Virus record (IMG/VR): IMGVR_UViG_3300032236_000548
Location: 32,001 to 96,000 of that record
Direction: 5' to 3' (one strand)
DNA length: 64,000 bases
Origin: a virus
In this document: one piece after another, positions 8 through 62,658 of the stretch
Numbering within the stretch: position 1 is the stretch's first letter
Layout: each line of letters opens with the position of its first letter
Program-made: the position numbers and the translations under genes
The notes under the pieces: model-generated
What the model was told of the DNA's origin: nothing
Databases searched by the model: none
The model's input: the letters and a program-made list of their open reading frames with translations, nothing else

Positions 8-1330
8 ATGAGCGATCCATGCTACCGCGTTATTTCTTCTTTGGAAGATCATCCTAGCCGTTTGAACAAAGAAGCTATTATTTTGATACAAGCTCAAGAT
101 GGCAACAAAGAATTCTTTGAAGGTTGTCGCCTAGCACTAGATCCAATGATTACCTTTGGACTTAAACAAATATCGGAGAAAACAGATGAAGACGGCCCTG
201 GCTTACCTTGGGACAGTTTTACTCTCGCTCTTACTGGTTTCATTACTCGCAATGTCACCGGTAATACAGCACGGACTATGATTGAAACTATGATGAAATC
301 AGCTACCAAAAAAGAGTGGAATGGCTGGTATCGTCGGATCCTTATCAAAGACTTGCGTTGCGGAGTAAGCGAAAAAACAATTAACAAAGTAGTGGAGAAG
401 AAATATGCTGACTATAGCATTCCTGTTTTCGGTTGTCAACTTGCTCACGATAGTGCAAATCATGAGTCTAAAGTGTCAGGAAAGAAACTTATCGAAGTTA
501 AACTTGATGGGGTTAGGGTTATCACTATTGTTCGCTGTGACGGCCGTGTCGATATGTTTAGTCGGAATGGTAAAGAGCTGGTAAACTTTCCGCAAATTGC
601 TGAACAGATTAGTAACGTAGTTAAATCAGACCCTCCACCATATGATCTAGTATTAGACGGTGAAGTAATGTCTAGCAGTTTCCAAGACTTAATGAAACAA
701 GTACATCGTAAGAGTGATGTTCAAAGTGAAGACGCTATTCTTAATTTGTTTGACGTTATTCCATTAGAAGACTTTGAAAAAGGTGTTTGGGATAGAAAAC
801 AATCGGATCGTAGTGACATGGTTTACTACTGGCATAAAAAGCATAAAGATGCATTACCTAATGTTGCAGTTGTTGGGCACGAGCTTGTTGATTTAAATAC
901 AGACGAAGGGCAAAAGCGTTTTAAAGAAATTAACGCTCAGGCAATTGTTGGTGGCTACGAAGGTATTATGATTAAAGATCCAGAAGCTGGATACGAATGT
1001 AAGCGTAGTGTAGCATGGTTGAAACTAAAGCCCTTTATCGAAGTATCGTTGGAGGTAACTGGTGTTGAAGAAGGAACTGGTAAGAATGTTGGCAAACTTG
1101 GTGCGCTTATTTGCGAAGGTACCGACGATGGTAAAGCAATCCGTGTCAACGTGGGATCCGGTTTTACTGATGCTAATCGCGATGAATATTGGAGCGATCG
1201 TACAGGCCTACTTGGAAACATTGTCGAAGTGAGAGCCGATGCTATTACACAAAATCAAGACGGTACTTATAGTTTGCGATTTCCACGCTTTAAAGGTTTT
1301 AGAGGATTTCAAGCAGGTGAAAAAATTTAA
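8..1330 (+). CDS. lig: ATP-dependent DNA ligase
   Basis: Motif I EVKLDGVR, motif III VLDGE, motif IV EGIMIK, WLKLKP, and an OB-fold C-terminus with VGSGF and SLRFPRF. Confidence 0.95.
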   Translation: MSDPCYRVISSLEDHPSRLNKEAIILIQAQDGNKEFFEGCRLALDPMITFGLKQISEKTDEDGPGLPWDSFTLALTGFITRNVTGNTARTMIETMMKSATKKEWNGWYRRILIKDLRCGVSEKTINKVVEKKYADYSIPVFGCQLAHDSANHESKVSGKKLIEVKLDGVRVITIVRCDGRVDMFSRNGKELVNFPQIAEQISNVVKSDPPPYDLVLDGEVMSSSFQDLMKQVHRKSDVQSEDAILNLFDVIPLEDFEKGVWDRKQSDRSDMVYYWHKKHKDALPNVAVVGHELVDLNTDEGQKRFKEINAQAIVGGYEGIMIKDPEAGYECKRSVAWLKLKPFIEVSLEVTGVEEGTGKNVGKLGALICEGTDDGKAIRVNVGSGFTDANRDEYWSDRTGLLGNIVEVRADAITQNQDGTYSLRFPRFKGFRGFQAGEKI

Positions 1331-30100: not shown

Positions 30101-31569
30101 ACGACGGCTCAGTACCTGCTCCATCGGTTTTACTTGGCGATCAATATGAGCAGGCGGCATATAGTGTAGCAGTTAATAATACTACAGGTGATATTTTATT
30201 TGTGGGTAGAAAACAGAGTAATACTGACGCACACTATTATCTGGAGATGGTTAAACTCAACATTGCAAGCCCAAGTCCTGGTTGGCAAAAACAAGTTTCA
30301 GTAACTGGTGACAATTATAATGTTCAAGGTACCGACTGCTGTTTACTAGCAGATGGTAACTGGGCTATACTGGCCACACACGGTCACAGCAGTGGCGCTG
30401 GCATTATAACTATGAAGGTCAGTAATACCGATGGTAGTGTTATGTGGAGTAGAGAAGTTAGTCAAGGCTGTCAGGCAGTTAGCTCTAGTTTAACCACAGG
30501 CAGTGATGGAAATATTTACATTTCGGGAATAACTTTCAATGGACAAACTATTCCCCCATATGGCTTACCGTTAACCAGCAGAGTAGTAGCAGCCTATAAC
30601 ACCAGCGGCACTAGCCTGTGGCAAAAATGGTTTGGAGCACCGGGTAGCAATTCACTTGTTGATGGTAACTCCTTTAACAGCATAGGTTTCGCGGGTAAAC
30701 TTTTATCAATATCTAACGATCACCTACTTCTAGGATCATCTCTTCTTACATTCCCCGACGGTTCATATCCTTCAACATCAATAGGTGTTGTTGTACAAAT
30801 TCCAACAGGCAGTGACAATCAAGTAATTGGACCATTTGAACTTACCAACAGTAATTTATCGGGTACTAGTGTTGCAATGACTGTGGCAGATACTGAATTT
30901 ACCTTTAGTCAAGGTAGTCAAACGTTTGGTTCAGGATCAACAATATCTGGTACTAACAGTTCAGTATCTTGGACAAAATTTAACTCGGGCGTTAGACCAA
31001 ATCAGCTAGCCGCTAGCACCAAGACTCTAACACTACAGACAAATGGTTTGCTAGTTGATGAAAATATCAGAAGCATCACAGGTGAGTTTAACGGCCTTAC
31101 TGAAAACACTGGTAACTATAGCAACAGCCAAATTTCAATTAGAAATGCTTCGGGTTACAAACGTATCAACAACTTGGACAGCGCACCGCAGACTTGGTTT
31201 AATGTCAGCGATGTGGCCACTCAGTTAGGAGTCAATCAATACTGGATTACCAGTGTAAGTATGGAATTCCAAGTGACCAGCAGTGGACTTGGTAACAGCG
31301 GTGACGTCTGTACAATGGTAGGAACTATTTTAATGGCTCACGACTATAGTTGGGGCAGAAACAGTGTCACACACACTGAAACAGCTATCTATGGCAACGA
31401 CGATAACGCAGACGCTTATGTATTTGCTAACTTGGAACTATGGAATGCACCAAATGGTAATATGCAATTGAAAACCTACAGAACTGACGGCAACAGTGGA
31501 CAACAGCTAGACATTATGTGGACAGCTCGAGTCTTTATTAACCCAATGCTGGTAGAAAGATACTGCTAA
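27196..31569 (+). CDS. long tail fibre / receptor-binding protein
   Basis: N-terminal LNFP..P..GD.Y...G.TY.FDGVKW; repeated W.F..DG.L.FP units; beta-propeller-like G..LW/W.K repeats in the distal half. Confidence 0.75.
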   Translation: MAILNFPDHPQTGDQYTGDNGTTYIFDGVKWLGTAGAGTSGTNSIVNNGNTVQIDSTGKLVLPAYSLPNTTGTAGQVLVWPGSGTTLTWATQSGSGGGSGSSLTNGGYSVSLGVDGYLNLPNGLDTAGALLQSASPIRVNSNGHFWTFGADGKLSFPPTVASPVGTTTQAFGMGNLFAWEDGDNWTIATGNPSTGAFGETGISISPGIESNAYLNLPSDTDIGNGATTTLANFSGNVVIQSADGNWVFGKDNSTIFPNSTLTTDKLSIQGAPYTIQITDSGGVWPPAVNTYTRLPGLGDPKWVPANYNASSDSYITFSNGLWALSSPSFPHPVYVNTGTLYAPSATWNPDTQFGLGSGNPTGAYTYNTWLFDSNGDLTAPGDIVVGGGLNAGGQEQHFIIDSSNYWTSIQWKNFANPQDPGTTPFECQAQLLRVFANNNTVTSECNVQNPREELVAVTVVRPDNTNYNGLMISTSERKIPDAPYNDGTGARHDFLFGGDGYLTMESLHLQGHLKGVDGSTGSTGQVLTRQSNGGAAWANATGGSGSVVFRTVSYPAGADGDTQGTIAVDNTGKIYLCLTTWAASSTVTYSATNNTDYAISQSAGHLLMYQITPSTLPDIQALFGTFNNYQYNYPTPGDFTLEVPGITGPRTVTACGYLSGSGDIWFDIAYVSGDPTTVSIGDAVTIHYTPQQPAIWEKVGATGNIKFDGQNISTDVGSSIYIKSTSDSTDDTEVDIGTHYVDIYTYNDTSGSSAELYINNADHANPYAYIYTQAHNSASKQWTFNKDGNIVFPDNTVQTTAYVPGSTDPLIWAVQAVSNTKATFMQAVTHDSVGNAIALMWQGNWNGPGEGKATIVKLDDHGNPVWAIDLADGNSVNPWSLCCDANNDVYVITQRVNGSGYYNNAVVKLSTSNGGILWQTDIQDSQNSNNMQAVPMVYSSGELSFNGIVIAGTAYNGTDNDFFVTFINNDGSVPAPSVLLGDQYEQAAYSVAVNNTTGDILFVGRKQSNTDAHYYLEMVKLNIASPSPGWQKQVSVTGDNYNVQGTDCCLLADGNWAILATHGHSSGAGIITMKVSNTDGSVMWSREVSQGCQAVSSSLTTGSDGNIYISGITFNGQTIPPYGLPLTSRVVAAYNTSGTSLWQKWFGAPGSNSLVDGNSFNSIGFAGKLLSISNDHLLLGSSLLTFPDGSYPSTSIGVVVQIPTGSDNQVIGPFELTNSNLSGTSVAMTVADTEFTFSQGSQTFGSGSTISGTNSSVSWTKFNSGVRPNQLAASTKTLTLQTNGLLVDENIRSITGEFNGLTENTGNYSNSQISIRNASGYKRINNLDSAPQTWFNVSDVATQLGVNQYWITSVSMEFQVTSSGLGNSGDVCTMVGTILMAHDYSWGRNSVTHTETAIYGNDDNADAYVFANLELWNAPNGNMQLKTYRTDGNSGQQLDIMWTARVFINPMLVERYC

Positions 31570-31586: not shown

Positions 31587-32147
31587 ATGACAAGAGCATA
31601 CTATAGAAGAATAACTGGATCTACAATGCAAGGTGACGGCGGCCAAGTTGCTGAAAAAGCTGGCACCTTGGTAGTCAATGCAGACGGTACACTACACCTA
31701 CACGATGGGAGTACATCCGGTGGATTGCCTCTAGTGGTAGACAGTGATTGGGTAAATCCCAACGATCATACTTGGAAGATACGTACCTACAACGATGGGG
31801 CCGCTGTGAGTTTTGATGGCACTACACCTGTGGTATGGTTTGATGTGGCTAATAGCCCATCGGGCCTAGATCAGTTCCGCGGTGCTATTATTGAGTATCA
31901 CGCTTTTACCAGTCAAGGAACAATAGTTGGAACTATTCACATAGCCGACGATTATCAACCAGGGGATGCTTTTACGCACACTGAACATATGAGTGGCAGT
32001 CCCAATCTACAAACAGTACATCTTTGGGGCCCAGATGTTAGCTTGACTCGCGGGCGCCTATGTTTCAAGCGCACAGATGGACAAGCTGCCACACTAATGA
32101 TACAGTGGACCGCTAAGATATTCTACGGCTACGAAGCTGACTGCTAA
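31587..32147 (+). CDS. tail-fibre-associated protein
   Basis: L.LHDG.T.GG module; C-terminus (KRTDG...QWTAKIF...C) resembles that of 27196..31569. Confidence 0.65.
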   Translation: MTRAYYRRITGSTMQGDGGQVAEKAGTLVVNADGTLHLHDGSTSGGLPLVVDSDWVNPNDHTWKIRTYNDGAAVSFDGTTPVVWFDVANSPSGLDQFRGAIIEYHAFTSQGTIVGTIHIADDYQPGDAFTHTEHMSGSPNLQTVHLWGPDVSLTRGRLCFKRTDGQAATLMIQWTAKIFYGYEADC

Positions 32148-48670: not shown

Positions 48671-49546
48671 ATGACTGATTATTACCAAACACTAGGTGTT
48701 AGCGAAACAGCTAGCCCAGACGAAATTAAAAAAGCCTACAGAAAATTGGCTAATCAGCATCATCCAGACAAGGGTGGAGACCAAGCCAAATTTAAAGATA
48801 TTTCTGTAGCATACGATACACTGAGCGATGCTAACAAAAAAGCCGAATACGATCAACAACGTATGTATGGCAATAGCACACACTCATTCCATTCGGGAGG
48901 CGGATTTGATCCGTTTAGCGGAATGTTCGGTGGCGGTGGAAGTCCGTTCCCGCAAGGTCATCCTTTCAACGACATCTTTAGAGGTATGGGACGCGGTGCT
49001 GGGCAGATGAGAAAGAACAGAGACTTGAATATACAATGTACTATCTCATTTATAGATTCTTATCAAGGTAAACAACTAGAAGCAAACTACAGATTACCAA
49101 GTGGTAAAAATCAAACTGTAGTTATTAATGTTCCAGCTGGTATATTGCACGGAGATACAATTAAGTATCAAGGGTTAGGTGACGATAGTGTTCCTAACAT
49201 ACAGCGTGGTGATCTTAATGTAACTATTCTAGTTCAGCCTGATCCTAAATTTGCCCGTAACGGGGACGACTTATATACAACTATCTTTATTAATCCAATA
49301 GAAGCTATGATTGGTTGTAGGAAAACAATACAAACAATTTCTGGCGGGACAATGGATTTAGATATTCGTGCAGGAGTCGAGCATGGTGTCGAGTTTGCTA
49401 GCAATGGTAACGGATTTACTAATGTAAACACTGGGCGCAAAGGACGATTTGTTACTGTAGTTCATATTAGAACTCCAGCAATTAACGATCCAGCAATAGT
49501 AGCAAGACTGAGAGACATTAATGCCGACATTAGTAACCTTCCCTAA
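48671..49546 (+). CDS. DnaJ/CbpA-type co-chaperone (class B, no Zn finger)
   Basis: J domain with HPD, G/F-rich linker and a DnaJ C-terminal domain (GDL.V.I...P...F.R.GDDL). Confidence 0.92.
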   Translation: MTDYYQTLGVSETASPDEIKKAYRKLANQHHPDKGGDQAKFKDISVAYDTLSDANKKAEYDQQRMYGNSTHSFHSGGGFDPFSGMFGGGGSPFPQGHPFNDIFRGMGRGAGQMRKNRDLNIQCTISFIDSYQGKQLEANYRLPSGKNQTVVINVPAGILHGDTIKYQGLGDDSVPNIQRGDLNVTILVQPDPKFARNGDDLYTTIFINPIEAMIGCRKTIQTISGGTMDLDIRAGVEHGVEFASNGNGFTNVNTGRKGRFVTVVHIRTPAINDPAIVARLRDINADISNLP

Positions 49547-50027
49547 TCAAGTACTTAAACAACAAGCAGAACCTTTTCAATTTGAAACTGAGCAAGATTT
49601 AGAAAATGCTCGTCAACTTGAAATTGATATGGTTAAACTTATGATTGAGAGTAACGGAATTGGGCTTGCCGCAAATCAAGTCGGAATACTCAAAAGAGTA
49701 TTTGCTATACGTTTGCAGGATCAGGTTCCATTTTGTATGTTCAACCCGATAATTGTTTCACACACAGATGATATTGTAGAAGCAGAAGAAGGATGTTTGA
49801 GCTTTCCTAACTTGTGGCTCAAAGTAAAACGTCCTAGTTCAATTACTGCCGAATACTTTGACAGACAAGGAAAAAAGTGTATAATAGAATTGAAGGGAAT
49901 AGATGCTAGATGTTTCCAACATGAATTGGATCATTTGGATGGTGTTTGCTTCACAGATAAAATTAGTCCATTAAAACTAGCATTAGCTAAAAAGAAATTA
50001 CAAAAGAGGAAGAAATTCAATGGTTGA
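49521..50027 (+). CDS. def: peptide deformylase
   Basis: GIGLAANQ, EGCLS and QHELDHLDG. Confidence 0.95.
   Translation: MPTLVTFPNQVLKQQAEPFQFETEQDLENARQLEIDMVKLMIESNGIGLAANQVGILKRVFAIRLQDQVPFCMFNPIIVSHTDDIVEAEEGCLSFPNLWLKVKRPSSITAEYFDRQGKKCIIELKGIDARCFQHELDHLDGVCFTDKISPLKLALAKKKLQKRKKFNG
49858..49885 (+). promoter_or_regulatory. internal sigma70 promoter in def, upstream of clpA
   Basis: TTGACA (49858-63), 16 nt, TATAAT (49880-85). Confidence 0.65.
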
Positions 50028-52290
50028 ACCTAGTGATAACCTACAAGCGGTATTTGAAAAAGCAATTGATACTGCTAAGAAACTACATCACGAATACTTA
50101 ACAATCGAACATTTACTGTTTGCTATGTTAATGGAAGAAGGATTTGCTAATACTGTACAAGGGTTTGGTGCTAATGCTGATAACTTAAAACAAGAACTAG
50201 CAGACTATCTTCAAAACAAATGTGCAGAAATTACCATTGAAGACGTGGTTGTTAAGCCTAAAAAGACACAAGCCGTTGAACGTGTACTCAATCGTGCATT
50301 TACACAAACATTGTTTAATGGACGTCAGCGTATCGAGCCAACAGATGTTTTTCTTGCTATGATTGGCGAAAAACGTAGTTGGGCAAACTACTATATTCAA
50401 AAGGCTAATATTGACAAAGACAAATTTGCCGACTATTTGAATAATACTGTTGAAGAAGGTGAAGAAGAAGCGCCACAAGACAATCAAGGCGAACGTGCTT
50501 TGAAAGCATTTACAACAGACTTGAATGACCAAGTTATTAAGAACAAAGTTGATCCAGTTATCGGTCGAATTGACGAACTAGAAAACATTGCGTTGGCTTT
50601 AGGCCGTCGTAGTAAAAACAACGTAATCCTTGTTGGAGATCCTGGTGTAGGCAAGACGGCTATAGCCGAAGGTTTAGCATACAACATAGTTAAGGGCGCA
50701 GTCCCAGATTTCCTCAAAGATTACAAAGTATTCAGCTTAGATATTTCAGCTATGCTTGCTGGTAGTAAATATCGCGGTGACTTTGAAGAACGTTTTAAAC
50801 ACGTTATTAAAGCATTGCAGAAGAAAGGCAAGACTGTGTTGTTTATTGACGAAGCACACATGATTAGTGGTGCAGGTTCAGCAAGCAATTCAGCTAACGA
50901 CCTTGCTAACATGATGAAACCTGCGTTGTCTAAAGGTAATATTAAAGTTATTGCCTCAACTACTTGGGAAGAATATCGTAAACACTTTGAAAAGGATCGT
51001 GCGTTGATGCGCCGTTTCCAACGCATTACTGTCGACGAGCCTACACAAGAAATGACTGTTAGCATTTTGCAAGGTATTAAGAAATACTACGAACAATACC
51101 ATAATGTCAAAATTCGTAATGATGCTATCCAAGCGGCTGTTAAGCTGTCTGTTAAGTATCAAACAGATAAGAAGCTTCCAGATAAGGCAATTGACTTAAT
51201 TGACGTAGCATGTTCACGCTTTAATTTGAAACTTGCCGATGAACGTATTATCGGCGAACATGAGATTCAATACGAACTTGCTAAAATGATTCAAATGCCA
51301 GAAGAAAAGATTATGGAAACTGAGTCTAGCAACCTTGCCAGCTTACAAGACAACTTGCAAGCAGAAGTATACGGACAAGATCTTGCTCTTACAGAAATTG
51401 TAGACAAGATTATGGTTGCACAAGCTGGTTTGAAATCAGAAAACAAGCCAATTGGTAGTTTTGTATTCATGGGGCCAACTGGTACAGGTAAAACTGAAAC
51501 TGCTAAAGCCCTTGCTAAACACTTGGGTACTAAGTTGCTACGCTTTGATATGAGTGAATATCAAGAAAAGCATAGTATCTCTAAGCTAATTGGTAGCCCT
51601 CCTGGTTATGTTGGCTTTGAAGAGAACGCTGGATTGTTAATTACACAGATTCAAGAGAACCCAAATGCTGTTCTGTTGTTTGACGAAGTAGAAAAGTCAC
51701 ATCCAGATGTAACAACTGTATTGTTACAAATGATGGATAATGGATTTATTACTGGTTCGAATGGTAAGAAAGCTGATTGCCGTAACTTAATCCTTATTCT
51801 AACCACTAACGCTGGCGCACAAGATGCTGAGAAGAACGTTATCGGCTTTGGCACACAGGAAAAAGAGTACAGCGATAAAGACTTGAAGAAGTTCTTTACA
51901 CCAGAGTTCCGCAATCGTTTAGATGGCATCATGACATTTAACAAGTTGGGCAAAGAAACTATGGTTAAGATTGTTGGTAAGTTTATCGACGAACTACGTG
52001 CTCAAGTTAAAGAGAAAGGTGTTAAAGTCAAGCTAGATAAGGAAAGTACTAACTGGCTGATTGCTAAAGGCTTTGATCCTAAGATGGGCGCTCGTCCGTT
52101 ACAACGTGTTATTGACAAGGAAATTAAACGTCCGTTGGCAAAGGCTATGTTGTTTGGGGACTTGAAAGCTGGAGGTACTGCGTCAATTACTGTTGAAAAC
52201 GATCAACTAGTACTTGTATCAACTCCTAAAGAAGTTAAAGTAGCTTTATTAACAGTAGATGCTACTAAAGAGGAGTCGAATGCTGTATAA
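50020..52290 (+). CDS. clpA: ATP-dependent Clp protease ATPase subunit ClpA
   Basis: HEYLTIEHLL N-domain; two AAA+ modules (GDPGVGKT and GPTGTGKT); KYRGDFEER; IGF ClpP-docking loop; no ClpB M-domain. Confidence 0.93.
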   Translation: MVEPSDNLQAVFEKAIDTAKKLHHEYLTIEHLLFAMLMEEGFANTVQGFGANADNLKQELADYLQNKCAEITIEDVVVKPKKTQAVERVLNRAFTQTLFNGRQRIEPTDVFLAMIGEKRSWANYYIQKANIDKDKFADYLNNTVEEGEEEAPQDNQGERALKAFTTDLNDQVIKNKVDPVIGRIDELENIALALGRRSKNNVILVGDPGVGKTAIAEGLAYNIVKGAVPDFLKDYKVFSLDISAMLAGSKYRGDFEERFKHVIKALQKKGKTVLFIDEAHMISGAGSASNSANDLANMMKPALSKGNIKVIASTTWEEYRKHFEKDRALMRRFQRITVDEPTQEMTVSILQGIKKYYEQYHNVKIRNDAIQAAVKLSVKYQTDKKLPDKAIDLIDVACSRFNLKLADERIIGEHEIQYELAKMIQMPEEKIMETESSNLASLQDNLQAEVYGQDLALTEIVDKIMVAQAGLKSENKPIGSFVFMGPTGTGKTETAKALAKHLGTKLLRFDMSEYQEKHSISKLIGSPPGYVGFEENAGLLITQIQENPNAVLLFDEVEKSHPDVTTVLLQMMDNGFITGSNGKKADCRNLILILTTNAGAQDAEKNVIGFGTQEKEYSDKDLKKFFTPEFRNRLDGIMTFNKLGKETMVKIVGKFIDELRAQVKEKGVKVKLDKESTNWLIAKGFDPKMGARPLQRVIDKEIKRPLAKAMLFGDLKAGGTASITVENDQLVLVSTPKEVKVALLTVDATKEESNAV

Positions 52291-52918: not shown

Positions 52919-52987
52919 AGCCTTTGCAAAAGCGATAAATACTCTAACCGCAGAGATTTCTGCTGAACAGTAAAAACGGGCTTAAAA

Positions 52988-53359
52988 ATGCGTATAAAAG
53001 AACTATTAGAGGGCAAATATTTTGACGATATGAAGTTTGTCAAGCAAGAAGGCGACAAACGCGATATCGACTTTGATTTACCCGATGATCTTATACATTT
53101 CATGCACAACGATGACGATGTTTATCGCCGCCATCTTTTTCCTAAAATAGCACATTGTATCGATCAAGTTAAAGTTAAAAAACCTACAGATTTAGAAATT
53201 TTCAAACCAGCTGTTCAACACAGCTACAAACTATACATTAAAAAGTTTCCTATTCGCGAATTACCTACCGAGCTAGGTGACAAGATGATGGAACGTATTT
53301 GTGGTAAGTTGCACGATGATACCCTTCAAGATATCAAAGACGGTGTTTACAAGGATTAA
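52988..53359 (+). CDS. hypothetical late protein with an MRIKELLE leader
   Basis: GATAAATA at 52934-41; shared N-terminal motif. Confidence 0.78.
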   Translation: MRIKELLEGKYFDDMKFVKQEGDKRDIDFDLPDDLIHFMHNDDDVYRRHLFPKIAHCIDQVKVKKPTDLEIFKPAVQHSYKLYIKKFPIRELPTELGDKMMERICGKLHDDTLQDIKDGVYKD

Positions 53360-53361
53360 TC

Positions 53362-54603
53362 GTGTTACTAAGAGAACTATTCATTAGAGAAAATGTTAAA
53401 CCTGCTGAAACTAAAAAGAAACAAGTAGGCAGAGCATTCAACCACCCTGAAGATTTAACATTCATGAATGGTAGTAAAGGTGCTATTAAAGCACTCGAGC
53501 ACATTAAAAAGATCGGAACAGATTCTAGCGCAGTTCGTTTAAAGTGGGACGGTGCTCCTCAAGTATACTGGGGTTGGAATTGGAATGAACAAACTGGTCA
53601 ACACGAATTTGTAACCGCTAACCATAATGGTTGGTTACGTGGAGGCGGTGGCACTAGTGATGTTAGTGAGTTTACTAACCAACATGGCATTTTTAATTTT
53701 ATTGCTAACCGTAGCGGTAGTGCTAAAACTCCTGAAGAACAACAACAACGTGAAATATTTGCCAAAGAGTTTAGCTTCTTACATCCTGTTTTAGAAAAAG
53801 CAACAAAGCGTCCTAAGAAAGGTAAGAGTTTATTCTTCTATGCTGATGGATTATTCTTACAGCCTCCAAGAGTGGATGCTAACGGTGTTTATAACTTACA
53901 TCCTAATCCAAAAGGTAATACAGTTTATCATATTGCACAAGATACTGAATTAGGTCAGCGTATTAGCAGTGCCAGAGCAATGATGGTAGGTCATGGAATG
54001 TTTACACACTTTGGTGCTCCAGACGAAGCACAACAGGCAGTAGAAGATTTTAGTCCATACATTGACGATAATGTTTCCGATGTTATTATCCTTGGACCAT
54101 ACTATACACAAATTCAACCACAAGTAGATGTTGAAGCAATCAATCAAGTAGAACAAGATATTGCATCACACGGTGCAGAAATTGACAGTTTCCTTGCTCC
54201 GCTTGCTGGTGTAAGTGGATTTAAAAATATAATCTATCGTTATGTAAACACTATGGCTAAAGAAAGTAATTTACATAATGTAGCACATAACTTTATGACA
54301 TGGGCGCAGGCAAACCCTACAGTTGTAAGTGCTAATCAATATCAAAAAATACAAGAACGTTTACAACAATTCCCAGGCGGCTTAACTGCCATGTTTAATC
54401 TGTTTAGCAGTATTATGCAATTAAAGAATCATATACTTGCACAGTTAGATGCAGACCCCGGTGAGATTAAAGTAAGTAATCCAGAAGGTTGGGTACACTA
54501 CGACAAGAAAGGTGACGACCACATTAAGATGGTGCCGCGTCACGATATAGAAACTCCACATGGAACAACTATTCCAGCGTGGGTACCAGGAATGCCAAAA
54601 TGA
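53362..54603 (+). CDS. covalent nucleotidyltransferase (RNA/DNA ligase-fold)-like protein
   Basis: KWDG (motif I), YADG (III-like), PEGWV (IV) and IKMV (V); no OB domain; GTG start, MLLRELFIRE leader. Confidence 0.6.
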   Translation: MLLRELFIRENVKPAETKKKQVGRAFNHPEDLTFMNGSKGAIKALEHIKKIGTDSSAVRLKWDGAPQVYWGWNWNEQTGQHEFVTANHNGWLRGGGGTSDVSEFTNQHGIFNFIANRSGSAKTPEEQQQREIFAKEFSFLHPVLEKATKRPKKGKSLFFYADGLFLQPPRVDANGVYNLHPNPKGNTVYHIAQDTELGQRISSARAMMVGHGMFTHFGAPDEAQQAVEDFSPYIDDNVSDVIILGPYYTQIQPQVDVEAINQVEQDIASHGAEIDSFLAPLAGVSGFKNIIYRYVNTMAKESNLHNVAHNFMTWAQANPTVVSANQYQKIQERLQQFPGGLTAMFNLFSSIMQLKNHILAQLDADPGEIKVSNPEGWVHYDKKGDDHIKMVPRHDIETPHGTTIPAWVPGMPK

Positions 54604-55640
54604 GATTAAGACAATTATTTGAATCAGGTCATGCTAAAGCAGATGCGGCATTTTGCTTTGGACGTTTTAATCCTCCGCATCAAGGTCATGCAGAAGTTTG
54701 GTCAGCAGTTAAAAACTCTGCACATAAATGGTATATTGGCACAAACCCAACTACTATCGGACCTAACGATCCGTTAGCTTTTAATACTAAGACAGCATGG
54801 ATGACTGCCATCGATCCTGAAATTGAAGGACATATATTAGGCGAAACAAGCGTACTTACACTAGCCGCTAGAATTTTTAGCCACTTAGGCGAAGGTGTAA
54901 CTATTGGTTACGTTACAGACGAAACAGACTGGGCGTGGGCCGGTAAGCTATTACATCAGTACAACGGACAAAAGAGTTTACACGGATATTTTAATTTTAA
55001 AGGTATTATTCATATTCCTAGCCCACGAGTTATGAGTGCTACGAAATTACGTGAAGCCGCTCGTGCAGGCAATGAGGAGCTGTTTTATCAATTAGCTGGC
55101 GTAGATCCAGAACTAAAAGTACATGGAAAATCATTCTTTGAAACCGTAGCAGAAGCATGTGGACAACATCCTATTAAAGCTAAAAAAGTTAAGAAAGAAA
55201 AGGCTGTAGTACAAGAATTAAATTCGATTAAATATGCTAATAAGGTATTAAGAGAAATGAAATTAAGAGAATTGTTCAGAGAAGGCAAAGTTACAGATGT
55301 ACATCCAGATCATGATGCTGTACATCAAGGCGGAGTAAGTAGAAGCCGTGACGTTGGAGGGTACGATCGTGTTTACCACATGAATCGTTTGATGATGGCT
55401 ATGGCTATGGCTAACGGTAAAGATACCAAAGCTGTTGATAGCCCAGAATCAACTTGGGTTGAAAAATTTAACACACACCATCCTTATACCAAAGAAGAAC
55501 ATAATATGATTCATTCGGCATTTAAAACTGTGCCAACTGACAAAGAAGAAATTTCTCCGTGGGAGAAAAGCGAAGAACCTAAAGATACAAACATAGTAAG
55601 CCCTGTGGCTAAATCTAAAAAGAACAAATACGGAATCTAA
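54600..55640 (+). CDS. HxGH cytidylyltransferase-like nucleotidyltransferase fused to a second domain
   Basis: FGRFNPPHQGH and MSATKLR; start ATG 54600; in-frame internal start MKLRELFRE at 55257. Confidence 0.8.
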   Translation: MRLRQLFESGHAKADAAFCFGRFNPPHQGHAEVWSAVKNSAHKWYIGTNPTTIGPNDPLAFNTKTAWMTAIDPEIEGHILGETSVLTLAARIFSHLGEGVTIGYVTDETDWAWAGKLLHQYNGQKSLHGYFNFKGIIHIPSPRVMSATKLREAARAGNEELFYQLAGVDPELKVHGKSFFETVAEACGQHPIKAKKVKKEKAVVQELNSIKYANKVLREMKLRELFREGKVTDVHPDHDAVHQGGVSRSRDVGGYDRVYHMNRLMMAMAMANGKDTKAVDSPESTWVEKFNTHHPYTKEEHNMIHSAFKTVPTDKEEISPWEKSEEPKDTNIVSPVAKSKKNKYGI

Positions 55641-56296: not shown

Positions 56297-57091
56297 ATGA
56301 AAATTGAACATTTAATCGGTCTAACTAAAGAGCAATTATTAGAAATGGACAAGAGCCAGAAAGGTGCTCCAGGTTGGAATATTAGTGACGATGAGCCAGG
56401 CGGCAAGGAACATTACGTTAAAGCAGTTAAAGCTAAAGATGTTGTTAAAAGCGCACACAAAGAGCTTAACAAGGCATTTAAAGGTGTGGATAGAAATAAA
56501 GTCGAAAAGCATAGTTATAAAAAGAATGAATTTGATATGAAAGAAAATCATAGAGATGCTTACGAACGTGACTACGATAGTAGCGTGAGTGGATTCGGCC
56601 GTTCAGCTAGAGATTGGGACGAAGGTGATCAAGAACCACCAAACAATTTTGCTATCTACATTAACGGTAAGAAGTGGAAGGTATTCCCTGGAGAAGGGTA
56701 TCACGCAGACGATCATCGCGAGCGCATTCAGCACCAACGACTACGAGATATGTGTGCTAAAAAAACAGCACAATCAGGTAAGAAATGGTCAGTTCATGCT
56801 ACTGGTGAAAATCCAACTTCTGAAAGTGTATCTGAATCAGCTACAGCAGGCGCTACTAGTGCCGCTAACATTGGAACAGTTGATGCACCTCAGTTAAGTC
56901 CAGGTAAAGCACGTGGTAAAAAGAGCTACACAGGTAGTATGTCTAGTGGCTCAGGTACTAAAGCACCTCCACAACCAGTAGTAAAACAACCTAAAAACAA
57001 GGATGGAACAGCTAAAAATGGCCTGGATATTAAAGGCACAAGTCTGTTCGGCGGGCCCGCTAACGAGGGCGCAGTAATCAAAAGACGCTAA
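56297..57091 (+). CDS. hypothetical protein, probably an internal head protein
   Basis: Charged, low-complexity modules separated by hydrophobic-x-E sites (LLE, MKE, VSE). Confidence 0.7.
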   Translation: MKIEHLIGLTKEQLLEMDKSQKGAPGWNISDDEPGGKEHYVKAVKAKDVVKSAHKELNKAFKGVDRNKVEKHSYKKNEFDMKENHRDAYERDYDSSVSGFGRSARDWDEGDQEPPNNFAIYINGKKWKVFPGEGYHADDHRERIQHQRLRDMCAKKTAQSGKKWSVHATGENPTSESVSESATAGATSAANIGTVDAPQLSPGKARGKKSYTGSMSSGSGTKAPPQPVVKQPKNKDGTAKNGLDIKGTSLFGGPANEGAVIKRR

Positions 57092-57120: not shown

Positions 57121-58605
57121 ATGCCACCAGAATTAGATAATCAAGACCCAGAACTAGACGCACCAGAGATGGGCGCAGAAGATCCAGCAATGGGCGAGCC
57201 AGACGCTGAGCCAGAAATGGCTGAACCAACCGGTGATTCCGAAGTAATCGGACTACACGGTGATGAAGGCGACCGCGAAGGTGCAATGGCTAAAGCTGAT
57301 TTGTTTAAATTAGCTAACTATTCACACAAATTGTACCAACAATTGAATGACGAAGATCAATTAGAGTCATGGGTACAAGCAAAGATTACTAAAGCGGCTG
57401 ACTACATTGCGTCAGTATATCACTATTTAGAATATGAAATGAAGTTCAGCGAATATGGACATCATTTAGATAACAGCGACACATTGAGCGAATCACAAAA
57501 ACGTGCTCTTAAAAATCGCTTAATGGAGGCTAAAATGAGAATTAAAGAATTGAAACAAGCACAAGCAGAAAAAGTTACTATCGCAGAAGGTATTTTACGT
57601 GGCGGTGAACATGAGTGTGCTGAATGCGGTGGTACTGGTATTGTTCATATGCCTGGTATTGAGCCAAGCGAAAAAGCAAAACGTCTAGCTAAAAAGCATG
57701 ACACTTCTACTCGCGCACACTTTGCGGCTATGAAGCGTTTGCAAGCTGAAGGCGATGACGAAATGGAAGAAGGCTTTGAAGCAGGTGCTAAGGCTGGTTC
57801 AGAATTCAAAACAAAGACTGGTGTTGCTACAAAAACTCCAACAGGTTTAAAGCACACAAATACAAGTCATAGTGATGAAGAGCATGGCGAGCCACCAAGC
57901 AAAGTTAAAGCTCGTTCAGCGGCTGACAAAGCAGGCGAGAAAGCTCAAGACAAAGCTGACGAGAAAGAATCTAAAGCATGGGGCAAAGCTAATCCAGGTA
58001 AGCAACACATCTACAAAGATGGTAAGAAAGTTAACGAAGCCAAACTAAAAGGCAAGCAGACTAAGTTAGATGTTGATAAAGATGGCGACATTGAAGCAGA
58101 CGACCTAGCTGACTTACGTGCTGGCAAGAAGGCTAAGAAAGTTTCTGAGGCTGCTAAACCAAGTGCTGGTTTAAGCAAAGAGAAAAAATCTGCTGTAGTT
58201 AAGAAAGCCAAAGCTGGTGGAGACATTGGTAAGCCAGGTAAGAGCTTTGACAAAGTAGCTAAGGCTGCTGGTGGTGGTAAGAAAGGCGAGAAGATTGCCG
58301 CTGCCGCTATGTGGAAGAACATTAAAGAAACTACTGCATACCTAGCTGAAAAGAAAAAGAAAGAAAAAATGACTGATGAGAATTTAACAGTTGTTCCAAA
58401 TCCATCAGGTGCTAAGGATGCTGAAGAAGCTAAGAAATTAGGTGCCGCAATGCCTAAGCCAGCAGGTTCAGCAAAAGATCCAATCAGCGAATCAGCACGT
58501 TTACGTGAATTAACTGGACGTTTGAACCGTGCTGAAAGACCAGCATTAGTTGAAAATCGTGAAGTTGATCAAATCCGTGCATTGACACAACGTCTATTGG
58601 GATAA
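57121..58605 (+). CDS. modular charged protein, probably prohead core/internal
   Basis: Acidic N-terminus, CAECGGTG, EF-hand-like DVDKDGDIEADD and Lys-rich modules; TAAATA at 57089. Confidence 0.75.
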   Translation: MPPELDNQDPELDAPEMGAEDPAMGEPDAEPEMAEPTGDSEVIGLHGDEGDREGAMAKADLFKLANYSHKLYQQLNDEDQLESWVQAKITKAADYIASVYHYLEYEMKFSEYGHHLDNSDTLSESQKRALKNRLMEAKMRIKELKQAQAEKVTIAEGILRGGEHECAECGGTGIVHMPGIEPSEKAKRLAKKHDTSTRAHFAAMKRLQAEGDDEMEEGFEAGAKAGSEFKTKTGVATKTPTGLKHTNTSHSDEEHGEPPSKVKARSAADKAGEKAQDKADEKESKAWGKANPGKQHIYKDGKKVNEAKLKGKQTKLDVDKDGDIEADDLADLRAGKKAKKVSEAAKPSAGLSKEKKSAVVKKAKAGGDIGKPGKSFDKVAKAAGGGKKGEKIAAAAMWKNIKETTAYLAEKKKKEKMTDENLTVVPNPSGAKDAEEAKKLGAAMPKPAGSAKDPISESARLRELTGRLNRAERPALVENREVDQIRALTQRLLG

Positions 58606-58612
58606 TATTCCG

Positions 58613-59959
58613 ATGGACATGAAGCGCATACTACAGGCGATGGATGGTGTTGCTACAAAGCCTGTAGCAGGTGCTAATGACATGGCACGATTCTTACGTG
58701 CTGTTACAGAAGCCGATATCAATCAAGAAGTCGTTGAAGACGAAGTAATTGACAATGGAGATGGTTCTACTAGAACTAATCATCCAGACGGGACATATAC
58801 TATATCCGACGGTGGCGGTATCACAACATACGATGCCCAAGGAACTGTTATTAAACATAACAGTCCTAGCTTTGCTGGATATTCGCAATCAACAGATAGT
58901 AAAGGTCAAGTTACAAAAAACTTTAACCAAGGGCCTATGAGTATACAGCAAGGTCCACAAGGAACTACTGCTAACTATCAATTAGGAGATAAGAATTTAC
59001 AAACAACTGTTAAAGAAGACAGTTTAAGTAAATTCCTGTCAATTATCGATAAAAATAATGTTAGTATTCTTAACGAAGGTGCTAACCCGCATAAAGTCAG
59101 TTTGCCAGTACAAATGGCAATGCAACATTATCAAAAGCCACAAGAGCCTATTAAAACTGTAGGACGTAACAATACGTTTGGCAAATACTTCCACAAAGTA
59201 GAACAAGAAGTTAACGAAGCTGTTGCAGAAGAACAAGCACAAAAACGTCAACTAATTAATCAGTATGCTAGTGTTATTGCTGAACGTGTCTTAATGAAAG
59301 AAGCCGCTAATCCAGCACAACAGGCTGCTATTGCTATTTCTAAAAAGAAAGAACAACAAGCAGACGAAAGCCTTAAGTCAGACAATCCATGCTGGAAGGG
59401 ATATCATCCTGTAGGTACTAAGAAGAAGGGCGGGCGTACTGTTCCTAACTGTGTACCAACTAACGAAAATGAAATTCCAGGACATAGTATGGGATTTACC
59501 GGTGGAGTTGGTCCAGGCATTCAGAGTAGTGTTGCTGAAACTCCGTTAGAATTAGATCGCGATAATCCAATGGCTAGTATGGTACATAGTCATCAAGGTG
59601 CTAATCCTGGCAGTATTGAATATCGTATTATGCGAGCACGTCGTCAATTACAAGATTTGGCTAAACAAGCTGAAAGCGATAGTCCGCTAGTATGGCAACA
59701 CATTGCTAGATTATTTCCAGAACTAGCAATGAACATTGAGCAAATTAATCACGGACTTGGTGAATTAAAGAACATCCGTAGCAAAGGCGGAAAGAATAGC
59801 AAAAATATTCCTGCCTTAGAATCCGTATTGCCAACAATTAAACCAAAAACAATTAAACCAAAAGCAAAGACAAGCGTATGTAAAGCTGGTCAAGTGCAAA
59901 CTGGAATGCAAACAAAGGATGGTAAATCTGTGCCCAAGTGCTCAGTAACTAAGAAATAA
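58613..59959 (+). CDS. modular protein, probably an internal head protein
   Basis: MDMKRIL leader; two Cys-flanked motifs (CWKGY...VPNC and CKAG...VPKC); many hydrophobic-x-E sites. Confidence 0.72.
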   Translation: MDMKRILQAMDGVATKPVAGANDMARFLRAVTEADINQEVVEDEVIDNGDGSTRTNHPDGTYTISDGGGITTYDAQGTVIKHNSPSFAGYSQSTDSKGQVTKNFNQGPMSIQQGPQGTTANYQLGDKNLQTTVKEDSLSKFLSIIDKNNVSILNEGANPHKVSLPVQMAMQHYQKPQEPIKTVGRNNTFGKYFHKVEQEVNEAVAEEQAQKRQLINQYASVIAERVLMKEAANPAQQAAIAISKKKEQQADESLKSDNPCWKGYHPVGTKKKGGRTVPNCVPTNENEIPGHSMGFTGGVGPGIQSSVAETPLELDRDNPMASMVHSHQGANPGSIEYRIMRARRQLQDLAKQAESDSPLVWQHIARLFPELAMNIEQINHGLGELKNIRSKGGKNSKNIPALESVLPTIKPKTIKPKAKTSVCKAGQVQTGMQTKDGKSVPKCSVTKK

Positions 59960-59971
59960 CAGGAAGATGAT

Positions 59972-62578
59972 ATGAACTTAAGAGACTTAATGACTAAACT
60001 TGATACAATTTCAGAAGCAGATTCTACTGGCCGTATCGATTATAAAGCCAATCAAGCCCAAGATGCTAAAGAGAAGGCAATTGCCGATGTTAAACAAATG
60101 GCAAGTACACCGTTGAATAGCATTCCTCGTTTTGGTGTTGCTATTGATCCAAAAACTGGACAAATTTTCTACGGTGATGCTGGCGGAGAAACTGGTAACC
60201 CATCACCAAAAGGTTATCCATACAAGTGGATGCAACCAAACGGTCCAGCCGAAAGTGTTAGAGATGGCAATCGTATTCGTGCATCAGGTTTAGAAATTGT
60301 AGAAAAGAATGGTTATGCTTATGTCGATCCTACTAAACTTGCAACAATTGGTGACGGTGGTGGTGGCAAACCTGATAACAAACCAGTAGGTCCACAAGGT
60401 AAAGATACAAGTGCAGACGATGCCGCAAAGTTAGAAGCATTGACAAATCAATTAGATGCACTATTGCAAGGCGGTGGCGGTGGACAGCCTGTAACTCCAC
60501 ATCCTCATATTCCTCCAAAGATCGATCCTAAGACTGGAAAACCATTTAATTGGAAGGAACTTGCGGCCGCTGGTGCAGTAAGTGCGATGCCAGGAGCAAT
60601 GGTTGGCGGACTACCAGGTGCGGCTCTTACTGGTGCAACTGGCGCCGGTGTCGATGCATATCATCAACTACATAAAGAAGGTAAAGAATATAGTATTGCT
60701 CAAGCATTAGTTGAAAGTTTTGATTATCAATTAAATGAAAAGCAATCCTGGATGGGAGATATTCCAGGCGCTAACTATGATGCATCATTTGGTGTTAAAC
60801 AACCTGAAGCTCCTGTATACGATCCTAATCAAAAATATAGAGATGCATTAGCAAATCAAGATAAAGTAGCGGCTGAAAAGAAAGCCGCATCTGATGCTAG
60901 ATTAAAATCAATGATGCCCGAACCAACAGCACCTGCTACAACAGCTCCGGCTAAGACAGCTCCTAATTTTGGTGGCGGTCAAATGCAAGGTAACGTATCT
61001 AGTGTCAAATACGACGCACCAAACTTAACAAAAGTTGCACCGTCTAGTGCTGCCGCAGGTGCAGAAACAAAGATTGCTACCAGTTTAGAAAAAGCTGGTG
61101 TGCCAATTGCTAAAAATGCCGAACAAGCTGCCGCAACTGTTGCCGCTAAAGCTGGTACTAAAGCCGGTGGAAAGATTTTAAGTAAACTAATTCCTGGTGT
61201 TGGATTAGTTGTAGGTACTATCGATGCCGTTAAACGTGCTCAAGAAGGCGACTGGACTGGGGCCGCAATGGCAGGTGCTAGTGGTTTATTGAGTTTAGTA
61301 CCAGGTGTAGGTGGTGCAGTTGCTATGGGATTAGATGCCGCTAACATTGCACGTGACTACAAAGCTGGCAAATTTAGTTCCGACGGCGGCGCTGGTGGTG
61401 GTGGCGCACACGGTGGTTCTACTACCGGCGGTGATGCAAAACTAGTTCAATTACAAAAAATAATTGGAGCTAAACCAGATGGGTTGATGGGGCCGGAAAC
61501 TAGCGAAAAGCTAAAAGCATGGCAACAAAAGAATGGTATTAAAGTAGACGGTCAACCAGGCCCAGAAACTTATGGCAAAGCTGGTATTAAAGAAGAACAA
61601 GTTACTGTTGCAGAAAGTATCCGCAACATGCAACAACGTCTACAGTTAATTGAAACTAAAGCACAGATTAAACAAAAACTAGAACAACGCTATCACTTAG
61701 ACGAGTACTGCTACATGTACAATAGTCGTGGTGAGCAAATTACAGACTTAGTTGAAATTGCTGTTATTAACGAAGCATATGCAAACGGTGAAGTTGATAT
61801 CGACGAAGGTGTTTGGAGTGACTTGTTTAAGGGCGGAATGGAATACGGCGGTAAAGCTCTAAAAGGTATTAAAGACTTTACAGGTGCCGCAGTTAAAGGC
61901 GGCGCAAGTCCAGCGGCAGCAGAAAGATTAGCAGGACAGGCTGGTATTACTGGTGCTAAGAAAGCTGGTTTGAAAACTGGTGCGGCTATTGCTAAAAATC
62001 CAATTAAAGCAGCCTTAGGTGCTACAGCATTAGGCGCAGGTGCCGGTTTAGCATTAGGCGGCGGCAAACCTACAACTACTACAGACACCGGAGGTGGTGG
62101 CGGTGGTGGAGGTGGTGGCGGTGGTGGTGGAGGTGGTGGTTCACAAACCGGCACAACTGATACTCCAGCAACTCCTACTGATCCAAAGATCCAAGAGATT
62201 ATCAAGCAAATGAAAGAGTTAATGATGTCGCACGGTGATGAACCAAACCCAGCACCAATTTGGGTACAAGCAACATCACATGCTCAAGCAGTTATTGATA
62301 AAGCTGAACATGCTAGCAAAGAACAAACTGCTTCCGATGCCAAAGCTTCTCAAGCAGACAAGACTGCGGTAGCAGGTGCTACTCCAACAACTACTCCAGA
62401 TAGTGGTCAAGCTGGTAGCCCAGCTGGAACAACTGGTACTCCAAAATCAAATGCAGTTAATGTTAGTGGAGCGGCAGATATTCCAGGAGTCAAAAGCGAT
62501 AAACAAGATTCAACAGTGAAAGTTTATAAAGAAGATGATGAACTAGCTCGTTGGTTAAGAATCGCCCGCGGACAGTAA
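59972..62578 (+). CDS. large protein with a peptidoglycan-binding domain and Gly/Ala-rich hydrophobic helices
   Basis: LQ..IG..PDG.MGPET...LK.WQ..NG..VDG..GPET (PG_binding_1-like); MNLRDLMTKLDTISE leader; Gly17 linker. Confidence 0.78.
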   Translation: MNLRDLMTKLDTISEADSTGRIDYKANQAQDAKEKAIADVKQMASTPLNSIPRFGVAIDPKTGQIFYGDAGGETGNPSPKGYPYKWMQPNGPAESVRDGNRIRASGLEIVEKNGYAYVDPTKLATIGDGGGGKPDNKPVGPQGKDTSADDAAKLEALTNQLDALLQGGGGGQPVTPHPHIPPKIDPKTGKPFNWKELAAAGAVSAMPGAMVGGLPGAALTGATGAGVDAYHQLHKEGKEYSIAQALVESFDYQLNEKQSWMGDIPGANYDASFGVKQPEAPVYDPNQKYRDALANQDKVAAEKKAASDARLKSMMPEPTAPATTAPAKTAPNFGGGQMQGNVSSVKYDAPNLTKVAPSSAAAGAETKIATSLEKAGVPIAKNAEQAAATVAAKAGTKAGGKILSKLIPGVGLVVGTIDAVKRAQEGDWTGAAMAGASGLLSLVPGVGGAVAMGLDAANIARDYKAGKFSSDGGAGGGGAHGGSTTGGDAKLVQLQKIIGAKPDGLMGPETSEKLKAWQQKNGIKVDGQPGPETYGKAGIKEEQVTVAESIRNMQQRLQLIETKAQIKQKLEQRYHLDEYCYMYNSRGEQITDLVEIAVINEAYANGEVDIDEGVWSDLFKGGMEYGGKALKGIKDFTGAAVKGGASPAAAERLAGQAGITGAKKAGLKTGAAIAKNPIKAALGATALGAGAGLALGGGKPTTTTDTGGGGGGGGGGGGGGGGGSQTGTTDTPATPTDPKIQEIIKQMKELMMSHGDEPNPAPIWVQATSHAQAVIDKAEHASKEQTASDAKASQADKTAVAGATPTTTPDSGQAGSPAGTTGTPKSNAVNVSGAADIPGVKSDKQDSTVKVYKEDDELARWLRIARGQ
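62090..62140 (+). repeat. GGN microsatellite encoding Gly17
   Basis: 17 consecutive GGA/GGT/GGC codons. Confidence 0.9.
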
Positions 62579-62581
62579 AAT

Positions 62582-62607
62582 AAATGGCAGACTAGTTCTG
62601 CCATTTT
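62582..62607 (+). terminator. intrinsic terminator
   Basis: AAATGGCAGA-ctagt-TCTGCCATTTT directly after the 62578 stop. Confidence 0.8.
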
Positions 62608-62629: not shown

Positions 62630-62658
62630 TTGATTTTGTAAGATAAGTAGTTTATAAT
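62630..62658 (+). promoter_or_regulatory. sigma70 promoter
   Basis: TTGATT (62630-35), 17 nt, TATAAT (62653-58). Confidence 0.72.

Follow-up and report, generated by a model that had tools for sequence, protein, structure and literature searches.

In bacteriophage T4, the first 10 residues of the internal protein IPIII suffice for head targeting, with residues 4 and 7 serving the targeting and residues 8 and 10 the cleavage by gp21 after Glu, and the enzyme Alt is delivered together with the DNA (PMC9026906, PMC5694885). The virion proteome of cyanophage S-CREM2 includes a cytidylyltransferase, and its authors describe enzymes of this kind as a frequent finding in virions of cyanophages (PMC10665884), and marine cyanomyoviruses have been described as ligase-less (PMC2984593). 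We analyzed 2 coupled genes, ORF1 (53362..54603) and ORF2 (54600..55640), on the plus strand of a 64,000-nucleotide stretch of viral DNA (positions 32,001 to 96,000 of IMG/VR record IMGVR_UViG_3300032236_000548; hereafter, the window, to which coordinates refer unless another locus is named). The ORF1 product is predicted to adopt the nucleotidyltransferase (NTase) core fold of ligases and capping enzymes, ORF2 encodes a predicted HxGH-type nucleotidyltransferase, and both start with a short peptide, or leader, resembling the T4 capsid-targeting sequence (CTS). In the reading that we favor, with a probability of roughly one half, the pair is a conserved ligase-like and adenylyltransferase module which, in this phage, reaches the head by means of a T4-type tag, is shortened by the prohead protease, and is ejected along with the DNA, with ORF1 acting on nucleic-acid ends. 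Each of the elements falls within a known kind, namely, T4 CTS cargo, the HxGH enzymes, or the ligase superfamily.

The 413-residue ORF1 product is translated from a GTG codon, with AGGA located 6 nucleotides upstream, and is, judging from its Pfam match, a divergent member of the DUF6267 family (PF19782; 58.9 bits, E 7.4e-16, above the 27-bit gathering threshold), only the N-terminal part aligning well. The same family was matched by all 36 relatives aligned with ORF1 (alignment A1; identity down to 40%), and ORF1 also matched PHROG 455, which, like DUF6267, is of unknown function. DUF6267 is very common and has never been characterized: ORF1 has more than 220 close metagenomic homologues, an exhaustive profile search for the family recovered 907 clusters at 50% identity, and its members are present in at least 468 sequenced phage records, each annotated as “hypothetical.” Full-text literature searches for DUF6267, PF19782, and “cytitidyltransferase” (the annotation of the partner gene in cyanophage S-RIM32; see below) yielded no paper naming them, and the passages retrieved from a jumbo-phage survey that covers the Rnl1, Rnl2, and RtcB systems are silent on the family (PMC7824862). 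When 50,697 phage records were searched with ORF1 using tblastn, nothing was found at E 1e-5, and cultured phages were reached only via a more distant family member.

Four sets of residues are invariant throughout A1, namely, K61-W-D-G64, Y160-A-D162, E375-G376-x-V378, and K389-x-V-P392, and the same holds for the GH pair at positions 210-211 and for an N-terminal element, GRxFNHxE. The 4 sets follow the order of the covalent nucleotidyltransferase motifs, with KWDG (53542..53553) as motif I, YADG (53839..53850) as a motif III-like element, EGWV (54484-54495) as motif IV, and KMV (54526-54534) as motif V, the last 2 (54484..54534) being placed on adjacent strands. Their invariance across the 36 relatives indicates that the motifs exceed what would be expected by chance. 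K61, the candidate nucleotidyl-lysine, would be the equivalent of the ligase catalytic lysine, as suggested by the fold match and the motif order.

The AlphaFold2 model of ORF1, built from A1, has a mean predicted local distance difference test score (pLDDT) of 90.3 and a predicted template modeling score of 0.86, with disorder confined to residues 1-22. Comparison of the model with 48,161 representative PDB chains using VIA-align returned as the best matches the RNA ligases NgrRnl of Naegleria (5cot, Z 7.4), REL1 of Trypanosoma (1xdn, 7.2), and Rnl2 of T4 (1s68, 6.9), followed by a ligase of Prochlorococcus marinus, Trl1, many DNA ligases, T4 Rnl1, and, lower, capping enzymes; approximately 170-204 residues were aligned with the ligase NTase domains. 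Foldseek independently ranked REL1 at the top, followed by DNA ligases III and IV, with weak scores (best E 0.037). Two aligners therefore agree, with modest scores, on a predicted NTase core fold of the covalent nucleotidyltransferase (ligase/capping enzyme) type. In the model, a strand ends with motif I and two neighboring strands carry motifs IV and V, consistent with the ligase superfamily, and a helical insert of approximately 105 residues (about 257-362) precedes motif IV. Because only 24 residues follow motif V, ORF1 has no C-terminal OB domain, and neither an OB fold in the model nor PF01068 or an OB family in the Pfam scans was detected. The sole sequence hint of a ligase was a sub-threshold match to PF09511 (T4 Rnl1; E 0.0016) in a cyanophage orthologue. 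An earlier note, written from the letters of this DNA, had read the 4 motifs in this order with no OB domain and proposed a ligase-like fold; the coordinates of the motifs were verified and the fold was recovered at the modest scores given above, whereas the place of ORF1 in DUF6267, a named family common in T4-like cyanophages, had been overlooked. The normal DNA ligase to which that note pointed at 8..1330 (plus strand) is indeed a canonical ATP-dependent enzyme with NTase and OB domains (PF01068, E 1e-20; PF14743, E 3e-12), which shows that ORF1 is not the only ligase-fold gene of the phage.

Translation of ORF2 likely starts at the ATG at 54600, which overlaps the ORF1 stop codon as ATGA and has AGGA 9 nucleotides upstream; the GTG at 54579 proposed by the ORF lister is a less likely start. 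The resulting 346-residue protein is a fusion: its leader precedes an HxGH nucleotidyltransferase, after which a Lys-rich linker leads to a second copy of the leader and to a C-terminal module whose last residues are KKNKYGI (alignment A2 and AlphaFold2 model). The HxGH (HIGH-type) domain (54630..55184) includes HQGH (54678-54689, within FGRFNPPHQGH) and SATK (55035-55046), both conserved among the homologues in A2, and residues 11-195 were modeled at pLDDT above 90. Foldseek assigned a probability of 1.00 to matches with HxGH adenylyltransferases, headed by the nicotinamide mononucleotide (NMN) adenylyltransferases (NMNATs) of the bifunctional NadM type (2qjt and 2qjo, E 1e-5) and followed by PPAT, NadD, and archaeal NMNAT, at approximately 14% identity. 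Searching PDB sequences with the family profile retrieved the Methanocaldococcus jannaschii NMNAT (1f9a, E 0.004), Francisella NadM, and NadR. ORF2 also matched PHROG 3041 (E 2.6e-14) and PHROG 395, both named “cytidyltransferase,” and scored 19.1 bits against PF01467, slightly below the 21-bit cut-off. By profile and modeled fold, the domain is thus assigned to the HxGH cytidylyltransferase-like superfamily, closest to NadM-type NMNATs, as the earlier note had surmised for the gene in the ATGA overlap; PPAT and NadD score nearly as well, yet NMNATs are the nearest class, and the matches do not reveal the substrate.

What that note had overlooked is the fusion of the ORF2 enzyme to a second leader-bearing module. 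The internal leader, MKLRELFRE (55257-55283), follows the Lys-rich linker in the context REMKLRELFRE at 55257 and opens a C-terminal module of unknown function (55257..55640, plus strand), which was modeled with low confidence and has homologous stand-alone genes. The NTase of relatives is in many cases encoded on its own, as a protein of approximately 200-215 residues, and the C-terminal module is a separate gene of 127-131 codons with its own leader (L060 10531-10926 and 10928-11323; L070 16167-16550), sometimes present in 2 paralogous copies, with a conserved KKNKYG(I/V) tail. Because the NTase and the leader-bearing module are separate in relatives, we regard ORF2 as a fusion that has retained the tag at the joint.

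ORF1 relatives were found at 430 IMG/VR loci. Among the best 80 of these, 72 had enough downstream sequence for linkage to be counted, and an ORF2-type NTase gene was located 0-207 nucleotides downstream of the DUF6267 gene in 54 of the 72, within 2.4 kb in 3, and was absent in 15. In cyanophage S-RIM32, R1080702_168, the prototype of DUF6267 (403.7 bits, E 1e-120), overlaps by 10 nucleotides the gene annotated as “cytitidyltransferase,” the product of which is 31% identical to the ORF2 domain, and the pair sits among the genes for DNA polymerase, UvsX, helicase, MazG, and NrdB. DUF6267 and NTase genes are also adjacent in Melnitz and S-H9-1. The exhaustive profile search further uncovered 2 natural fusions (P0280 and P0288), in which DUF6267 is followed by CTP_transf_like, and PHROG 455 covers both the DUF6267 and the NTase domains; longer, fused forms of ORF1 did not turn up in a word-based search. 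The pair is ancient, its order being kept in IMG/VR loci, T4-like cyanophages, Melnitz, and some fusions, and this conservation indicates that the 2 genes are functionally linked. The earlier note had made its 2-enzyme module depend on such linkage in relatives, which is what the loci, the cyanophages, and the fused proteins display.

The leader of ORF1, (V/M)LLRELFIRE (10 residues; 53362..53391, plus strand), a candidate T4 CTS-like propeptide, is kept in at least 30 of the 36 relatives, and that of ORF2, MRLRQLFE (54600..54623, plus strand), recurs in almost every homologue in the form M-x-L-R-(E/Q)-L-F-E. The pattern M-[KRLNFQ]-[LIAVFM]-[RKNQ]-[EQD]-[LFI]-[LFIMV] was sought at all potential start codons, on either strand of the 104,655-base record, and matched 5 times, always on the plus strand between 52988 and 62578, in a 123-residue ORF, ORF1, ORF2, the internal site of ORF2, and an 868-residue protein. 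Against a background frequency of 5.4e-4 per residue for the six-residue core, 4 of the 117 ORFs, all located within 10 kb, have this core immediately after the initiator Met (binomial P approximately 6e-7). The codons of the leader vary between its copies, which argues for selection on the peptide. Most genes of the syntenic block begin with the leader in relatives, and a 356-kb genome has a second cluster of leader-bearing genes.

The likeness to T4 extends to individual positions. The N-termini of IPII/IPIII and Alt are MKTYQEFIAE and MELITELFDE, respectively; MLLRELFIRE of ORF1 equals IPIII in length and in F7-I8-x-E10 and has ELF-x-E in common with Alt, and MLLRELFIRE, MRLRQLFE, MKLRELFRE, and MRIKELLE are all short N-terminal peptides on unrelated proteins with a gp21-type (L/I)-x-E ending. 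A gp21-type protease (Peptidase_S77) scored above the cut-off in 3 related records, including the 96%-complete G001, and was absent from the 28%-complete record itself. The orthologues of ORF1 and ORF2 in S-RIM32 have no leader, and those in Melnitz carry a T4-like one (MKKFSEIIE... and MLTLINFSKYITE...), so that the leader appears to be a portable add-on. The virion cytidylyltransferase of S-CREM2, a distant homologue of ORF2 matching the same PHROGs, has the N-terminus MKNFSSFLTE. By analogy with T4, the N-terminal peptides are probably capsid-targeting propeptides, which would be removed by cleavage, and ORF1 and ORF2 would be packaged in the head and injected with the DNA. The description of these N-termini as a cargo leader in the earlier note accords with the resemblance to Alt and IPIII, the protease in relatives, and the late-promoter-like box before the block; the pair is, however, not specific to injected cargo, a point that the note had overlooked, the S-RIM32 orthologues being leaderless. 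PA5oct, the nearest cultured phage by polymerase and ClpA, was considered as a proxy for the virion proteome and set aside: it has tail-fibre-like structural genes after ClpA, no leader block, and no DUF6267. S-CREM2 ORF160, a virion protein sized like the short DUF6267 forms, proved not to belong to DUF6267.

The box GATAAATAC (52934..52942, plus strand) lies 46 nucleotides before the first leader-bearing gene. Its core, ATAAATA, occurs 7 times on the plus strand (7600, 9088, 11491, 12371, 40952, 47749, and 52935) and 0 times on the minus strand, and 6 of the 7 copies are located 11-53 nucleotides ahead of a gene start; TATAAATA, the canonical late box of T4, has 0 occurrences where 7.1 would be expected. 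By comparison with T4 late promoters, (G/A)ATAAATA is probably a late-promoter variant, and the GATAAATA box would serve as the late promoter of the block. Matches to sigma70-type promoters within the block are no more frequent than expected by chance. The first gene of the block (52988..53359, plus strand), located directly upstream of ORF1 in most relatives, encodes a 123-residue protein of unknown function with the leader MRIKELLEGK and with no Pfam or PHROG match. The last one (59972..62578, plus strand) encodes the 868-residue protein with the leader MNLRDLM, which has peptidase/endolysin-like regions at residues about 363-560 and is a candidate ejected cell-wall hydrolase. A terminator-like hairpin (62582..62606) closes the block, and a sigma70-like promoter follows the 868-residue gene at 62630-62658.

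Several further features of the block and of its counterparts in relatives were recorded. Two block proteins (56297-57091 and 57121-58605), with homologues in L013, L024, and L060, are of low complexity and rich in Lys, Glu, and Ala; they end in the conserved sequences ...GG(S/P)x(I/V)KR and ...L(T/K)xxL(L/N)G, which may be C-terminal processing or targeting signals, and the 494-residue protein also has a leader-like ARLRELTGRL near its C-terminus. A Cys motif, CWxGY...GK.VPNCV, is present in the relatives' homologues of a 448-residue protein (58613-59959), for example, at L013 13264-14343 and L060 13221-13994, as well as in inserts of ORF2 homologues, in the Melnitz NTase fusion (L107 5083-7035), and in the virion-proteome protein S-CREM2 ORF160 (L110 1643-2536); internal head proteins may use it as a small zinc-binding module. 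Pol-beta-type nucleotidyltransferases (GS...DxD) are encoded directly upstream of DUF6267 in some relatives, and a second Pol-beta NTase family, PHROG 36119, includes members with leader-like N-termini and S-CREM2 ORF156, which is part of the published virion proteome; the Pol-beta-type loci are L070 7243-8004, L031 7240-8004, L069 10998-11747, and L106 5513-6226 (S-CREM2 ORF156). In cultured T4-like phages, DUF6267 is preceded by a third gene, of 360-415 codons and with no Pfam match (L103 3736-4980 in S-RIM32; L107 2372-3457 in Melnitz), the Melnitz copy of which begins with the CTS-like MQGFKTFLSE.

The 104,655-base record to which the window belongs has a CheckV completeness of 28%; a related record of 356 kb (G001) is 96% complete. 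The source of the record is a large T4-related myovirus, the nearest relatives of its family-B DNA polymerase and ClpA-like ATPase being those of jumbo phages such as PA5oct, Phosso, Atu_ph07, and Vibrio phage 2.275.O (approximately 42-49% identity). Genes for DnaJ-like, peptide deformylase, and ClpA-like proteins (48671-52290) follow one another immediately before the tagged block and adjoin its upstream side in all relatives, across which ClpA is 70-90% identical and always next to the block; a ClpP-like protein is encoded elsewhere (G000 30581-31171). An ORF of 4,655 codons (12725-26692) lies among baseplate and tail-fibre genes, and the N-terminus of its product resembles the neighboring fibre-connector proteins.

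In the mechanism that we propose, ORF1 would most likely form a Lys61-nucleoside monophosphate intermediate and seal or adenylylate a nucleic-acid end, and the HxGH enzyme of ORF2 would cooperate with it, either by making or recycling its nucleotide donor or by processing a common substrate. The idea that ORF2 may make or recycle an adenylyl donor is attractive and speculative. In the giant phage lineage, each enzyme would have gained a T4-type capsid-targeting propeptide of approximately 10 residues; given T4-type propeptides and a late-transcribed block of tagged proteins, loading into the prohead, gp21-type trimming after Glu, and ejection with the DNA would follow, and ORF2 would be cut into 2 pieces at its internal leader. 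End sealing is our best guess for the activity of ORF1, as judged from the model. We favor the sealing of RNA or DNA breaks because the ORF1 fold is nearest to nick-sealing RNA ligases, because genes of the Rnl1 or Rnl2 families are absent from the 96%-complete relative, which does encode a canonical DNA ligase, because cyanomyoviruses are without another ligase (complete S-RIM32 genome; PMC2984593), and because a Pol-beta-type nucleotidyltransferase is encoded directly upstream in some relatives.

Several observations weigh against this interpretation. The Z scores of ORF1, up to 7.4, fall where, according to the tool, a common arrangement may be responsible, and Foldseek reached E 0.037 at best. 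No ligase was found when ORF1 and its profile were compared with PDB sequences, Pfam scans of 36 members of the ORF1 family at up to E 10 returned no ligase family (including PF09511 and PF09414), and the hhalign probability for the family profile and T4 Rnl1 was 0.2%. Motif V of ORF1 has a single Lys, the usual form being K-x-K, and the equivalence of K61 to the catalytic lysine derives from fold and motif order and not from a residue-by-residue superposition. LxE and IxE cleavage motifs are short and common. An end-healing enzyme (kinase or phosphatase) was not found beside the pair. Since the S-RIM32 orthologues are leaderless and located among replication genes, the ancestral role of the pair need not include injection. 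Finally, the virion-proteome support comes from the S-CREM2 homologue and not from this phage lineage, and the S-CREM2 authors caution that virion preparations may contain non-structural proteins carried along because of their abundance (PMC10665884).

The closest neighbors of ORF2 in sequence and fold, the NadM/NadR-type NMNATs, raise the question of whether the module deals with cofactors rather than with strands: ORF2 would be a true NMNAT restoring nicotinamide adenine dinucleotide (NAD+) depleted by host defence, and ORF1 would adenylylate a small molecule or protein or use NAD+ otherwise. In cyanophage papers, the enzyme is described as homologous to NMNATs, with a suggested role in NAD metabolism (PMC10665884), and the HxGH family is present without DUF6267 in RaK2-like and PA5oct-like jumbo phages. 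We nevertheless consider this unlikely, as the identity to NMNATs is only approximately 14%, with PPAT and NadD scoring almost equally, and as NAD salvage alone would leave the coupling and fusion with a ligase-fold enzyme unexplained. The route would also be incomplete, because no Nampt/NadV-type gene was found in the 96%-complete relative or in S-RIM32; NAD rebuilding, which the earlier note had entertained among the possible roles, is thereby weakened as a self-standing pathway, although the NMNAT-like fold on which it drew was recovered. A bolder combination of both ideas would make the pair a self-contained, capsid-delivered strand-sealing machine in which the HxGH enzyme makes the adenylyl donor of the DUF6267 ligase or renews it, for instance by forming NAD+ from NMN and ATP, the untagged form being the missing ligase of cyanomyoviruses. 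The NMN/NAD+ cycle would then be closed, the injected enzyme would reseal phage DNA or host or phage RNA cut by defence nucleases, and repair would precede any phage gene expression, even in NAD+-depleted cells; we regard so complete a scheme as improbable.

The surroundings of the S-RIM32 pair, among replication genes in a complete genome devoid of a PF01068 ligase, and the reported lack of g30 in cyanomyoviruses (PMC2984593) would equally suit an ORF1 that acts inside the infected cell as a replication or repair ligase, the one “missing” from cyanomyoviruses, its N-terminal motif being a regulatory or degradation tag for the phage ClpA/ClpP. The genes for peptide deformylase, ClpA-like, and DnaJ-like proteins directly upstream of the block in all relatives are compatible with such a tag, but this synteny may be mere conserved gene order, and the motif fits the propeptides of T4 Alt and IPIII in length and key positions and is common to wall-hydrolase-like and low-complexity, internal-protein-like proteins. 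The lineage already encodes a canonical DNA ligase, a late-type box heads the block, and a homologous NTase with a similar N-terminus has been detected in virions (PMC10665884), so that a purely intracellular ligase seems doubtful to us. Least probable is an ORF1 that transfers GMP or AMP to RNA 5′ ends, or marks phage nucleic-acid ends, without joining them, in the manner of capping enzymes or other non-ligase members of the superfamily. The model does match capping enzymes (4ckb, Z 4.9; 1ckm, 4.7; 1p16, 4.7), KxDG is common to ligases and capping enzymes, and motif V has its single Lys; RNA and DNA ligases nonetheless outscore capping enzymes on the same model, capping enzymes normally have the OB domain that ORF1 lacks, and no triphosphatase or methyltransferase partner is encoded nearby.

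If the pair is indeed a head-targeted, end-processing module, it would add a ligase-like enzyme and an adenylyltransferase to the injected enzymes, which include T4 Alt and virion RNA polymerases, and the 10-residue tag would be shown to be a portable module across distant T4 relatives. A ligase-fold enzyme in the replication region of cyanomyoviruses would, in turn, fill their ligase gap.

Among the systems already described, the predicted NTase core of ORF1 is most similar to those of the RNA ligases NgrRnl (Rnl5, 5cot), REL1 (1xdn), T4 Rnl2 (1s68, 2hvq), T4 Rnl1 (9do4), and the ligase domain of fungal Trl1 (Z 5.5-7.4). Like OB-less RNA ligases, ORF1 presents KxDG, an acidic motif III, the EG of motif IV, and the Lys of motif V in this order, and its accessory part is helical. 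Unlike them, it has no detectable sequence relationship to these enzymes, places the helical part between motifs IIIa and IV rather than after motif V, includes a conserved N-terminal GRxFNHxED element, has K-x-V-P rather than K-x-K in motif V, and is coupled or fused to an HxGH enzyme, its activity being a prediction. With the S-RIM32 DUF6267/PHROG 455 proteins, ORF1 shares the family and the downstream “cytitidyltransferase” partner, whereas it is divergent from cyanophage DUF6267, to the extent that only the regions of motif I and of motifs IV-V align in pairwise BLAST, bears a CTS-like leader, and is located in a block of tagged late genes rather than among replication genes. ORF2 resembles the NadM/NadR NMNATs (1f9a; Francisella and Synechocystis NadM, 2qjt/2qjo) and PPAT (CoaD) in its Rossmann-like HxGH fold, G-R-F-x-P-x-H-x-G-H, and ISxT/SATK..R, but differs from them in its low identity (approximately 14%), in having neither a Nudix nor a NadR kinase domain, and in being fused to a leader and an unrelated C-terminal module. 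Finally, like the gp21-cleaved CTS of T4 (IPI-III and Alt), the leader is an N-terminal peptide of approximately 10 residues with a Glu at its end, carried by unrelated proteins (PMC9026906), whereas, unlike in T4, the tag of this lineage, with its predicted targeting and cleavage, is also found inside a protein, at the joint of a fusion.

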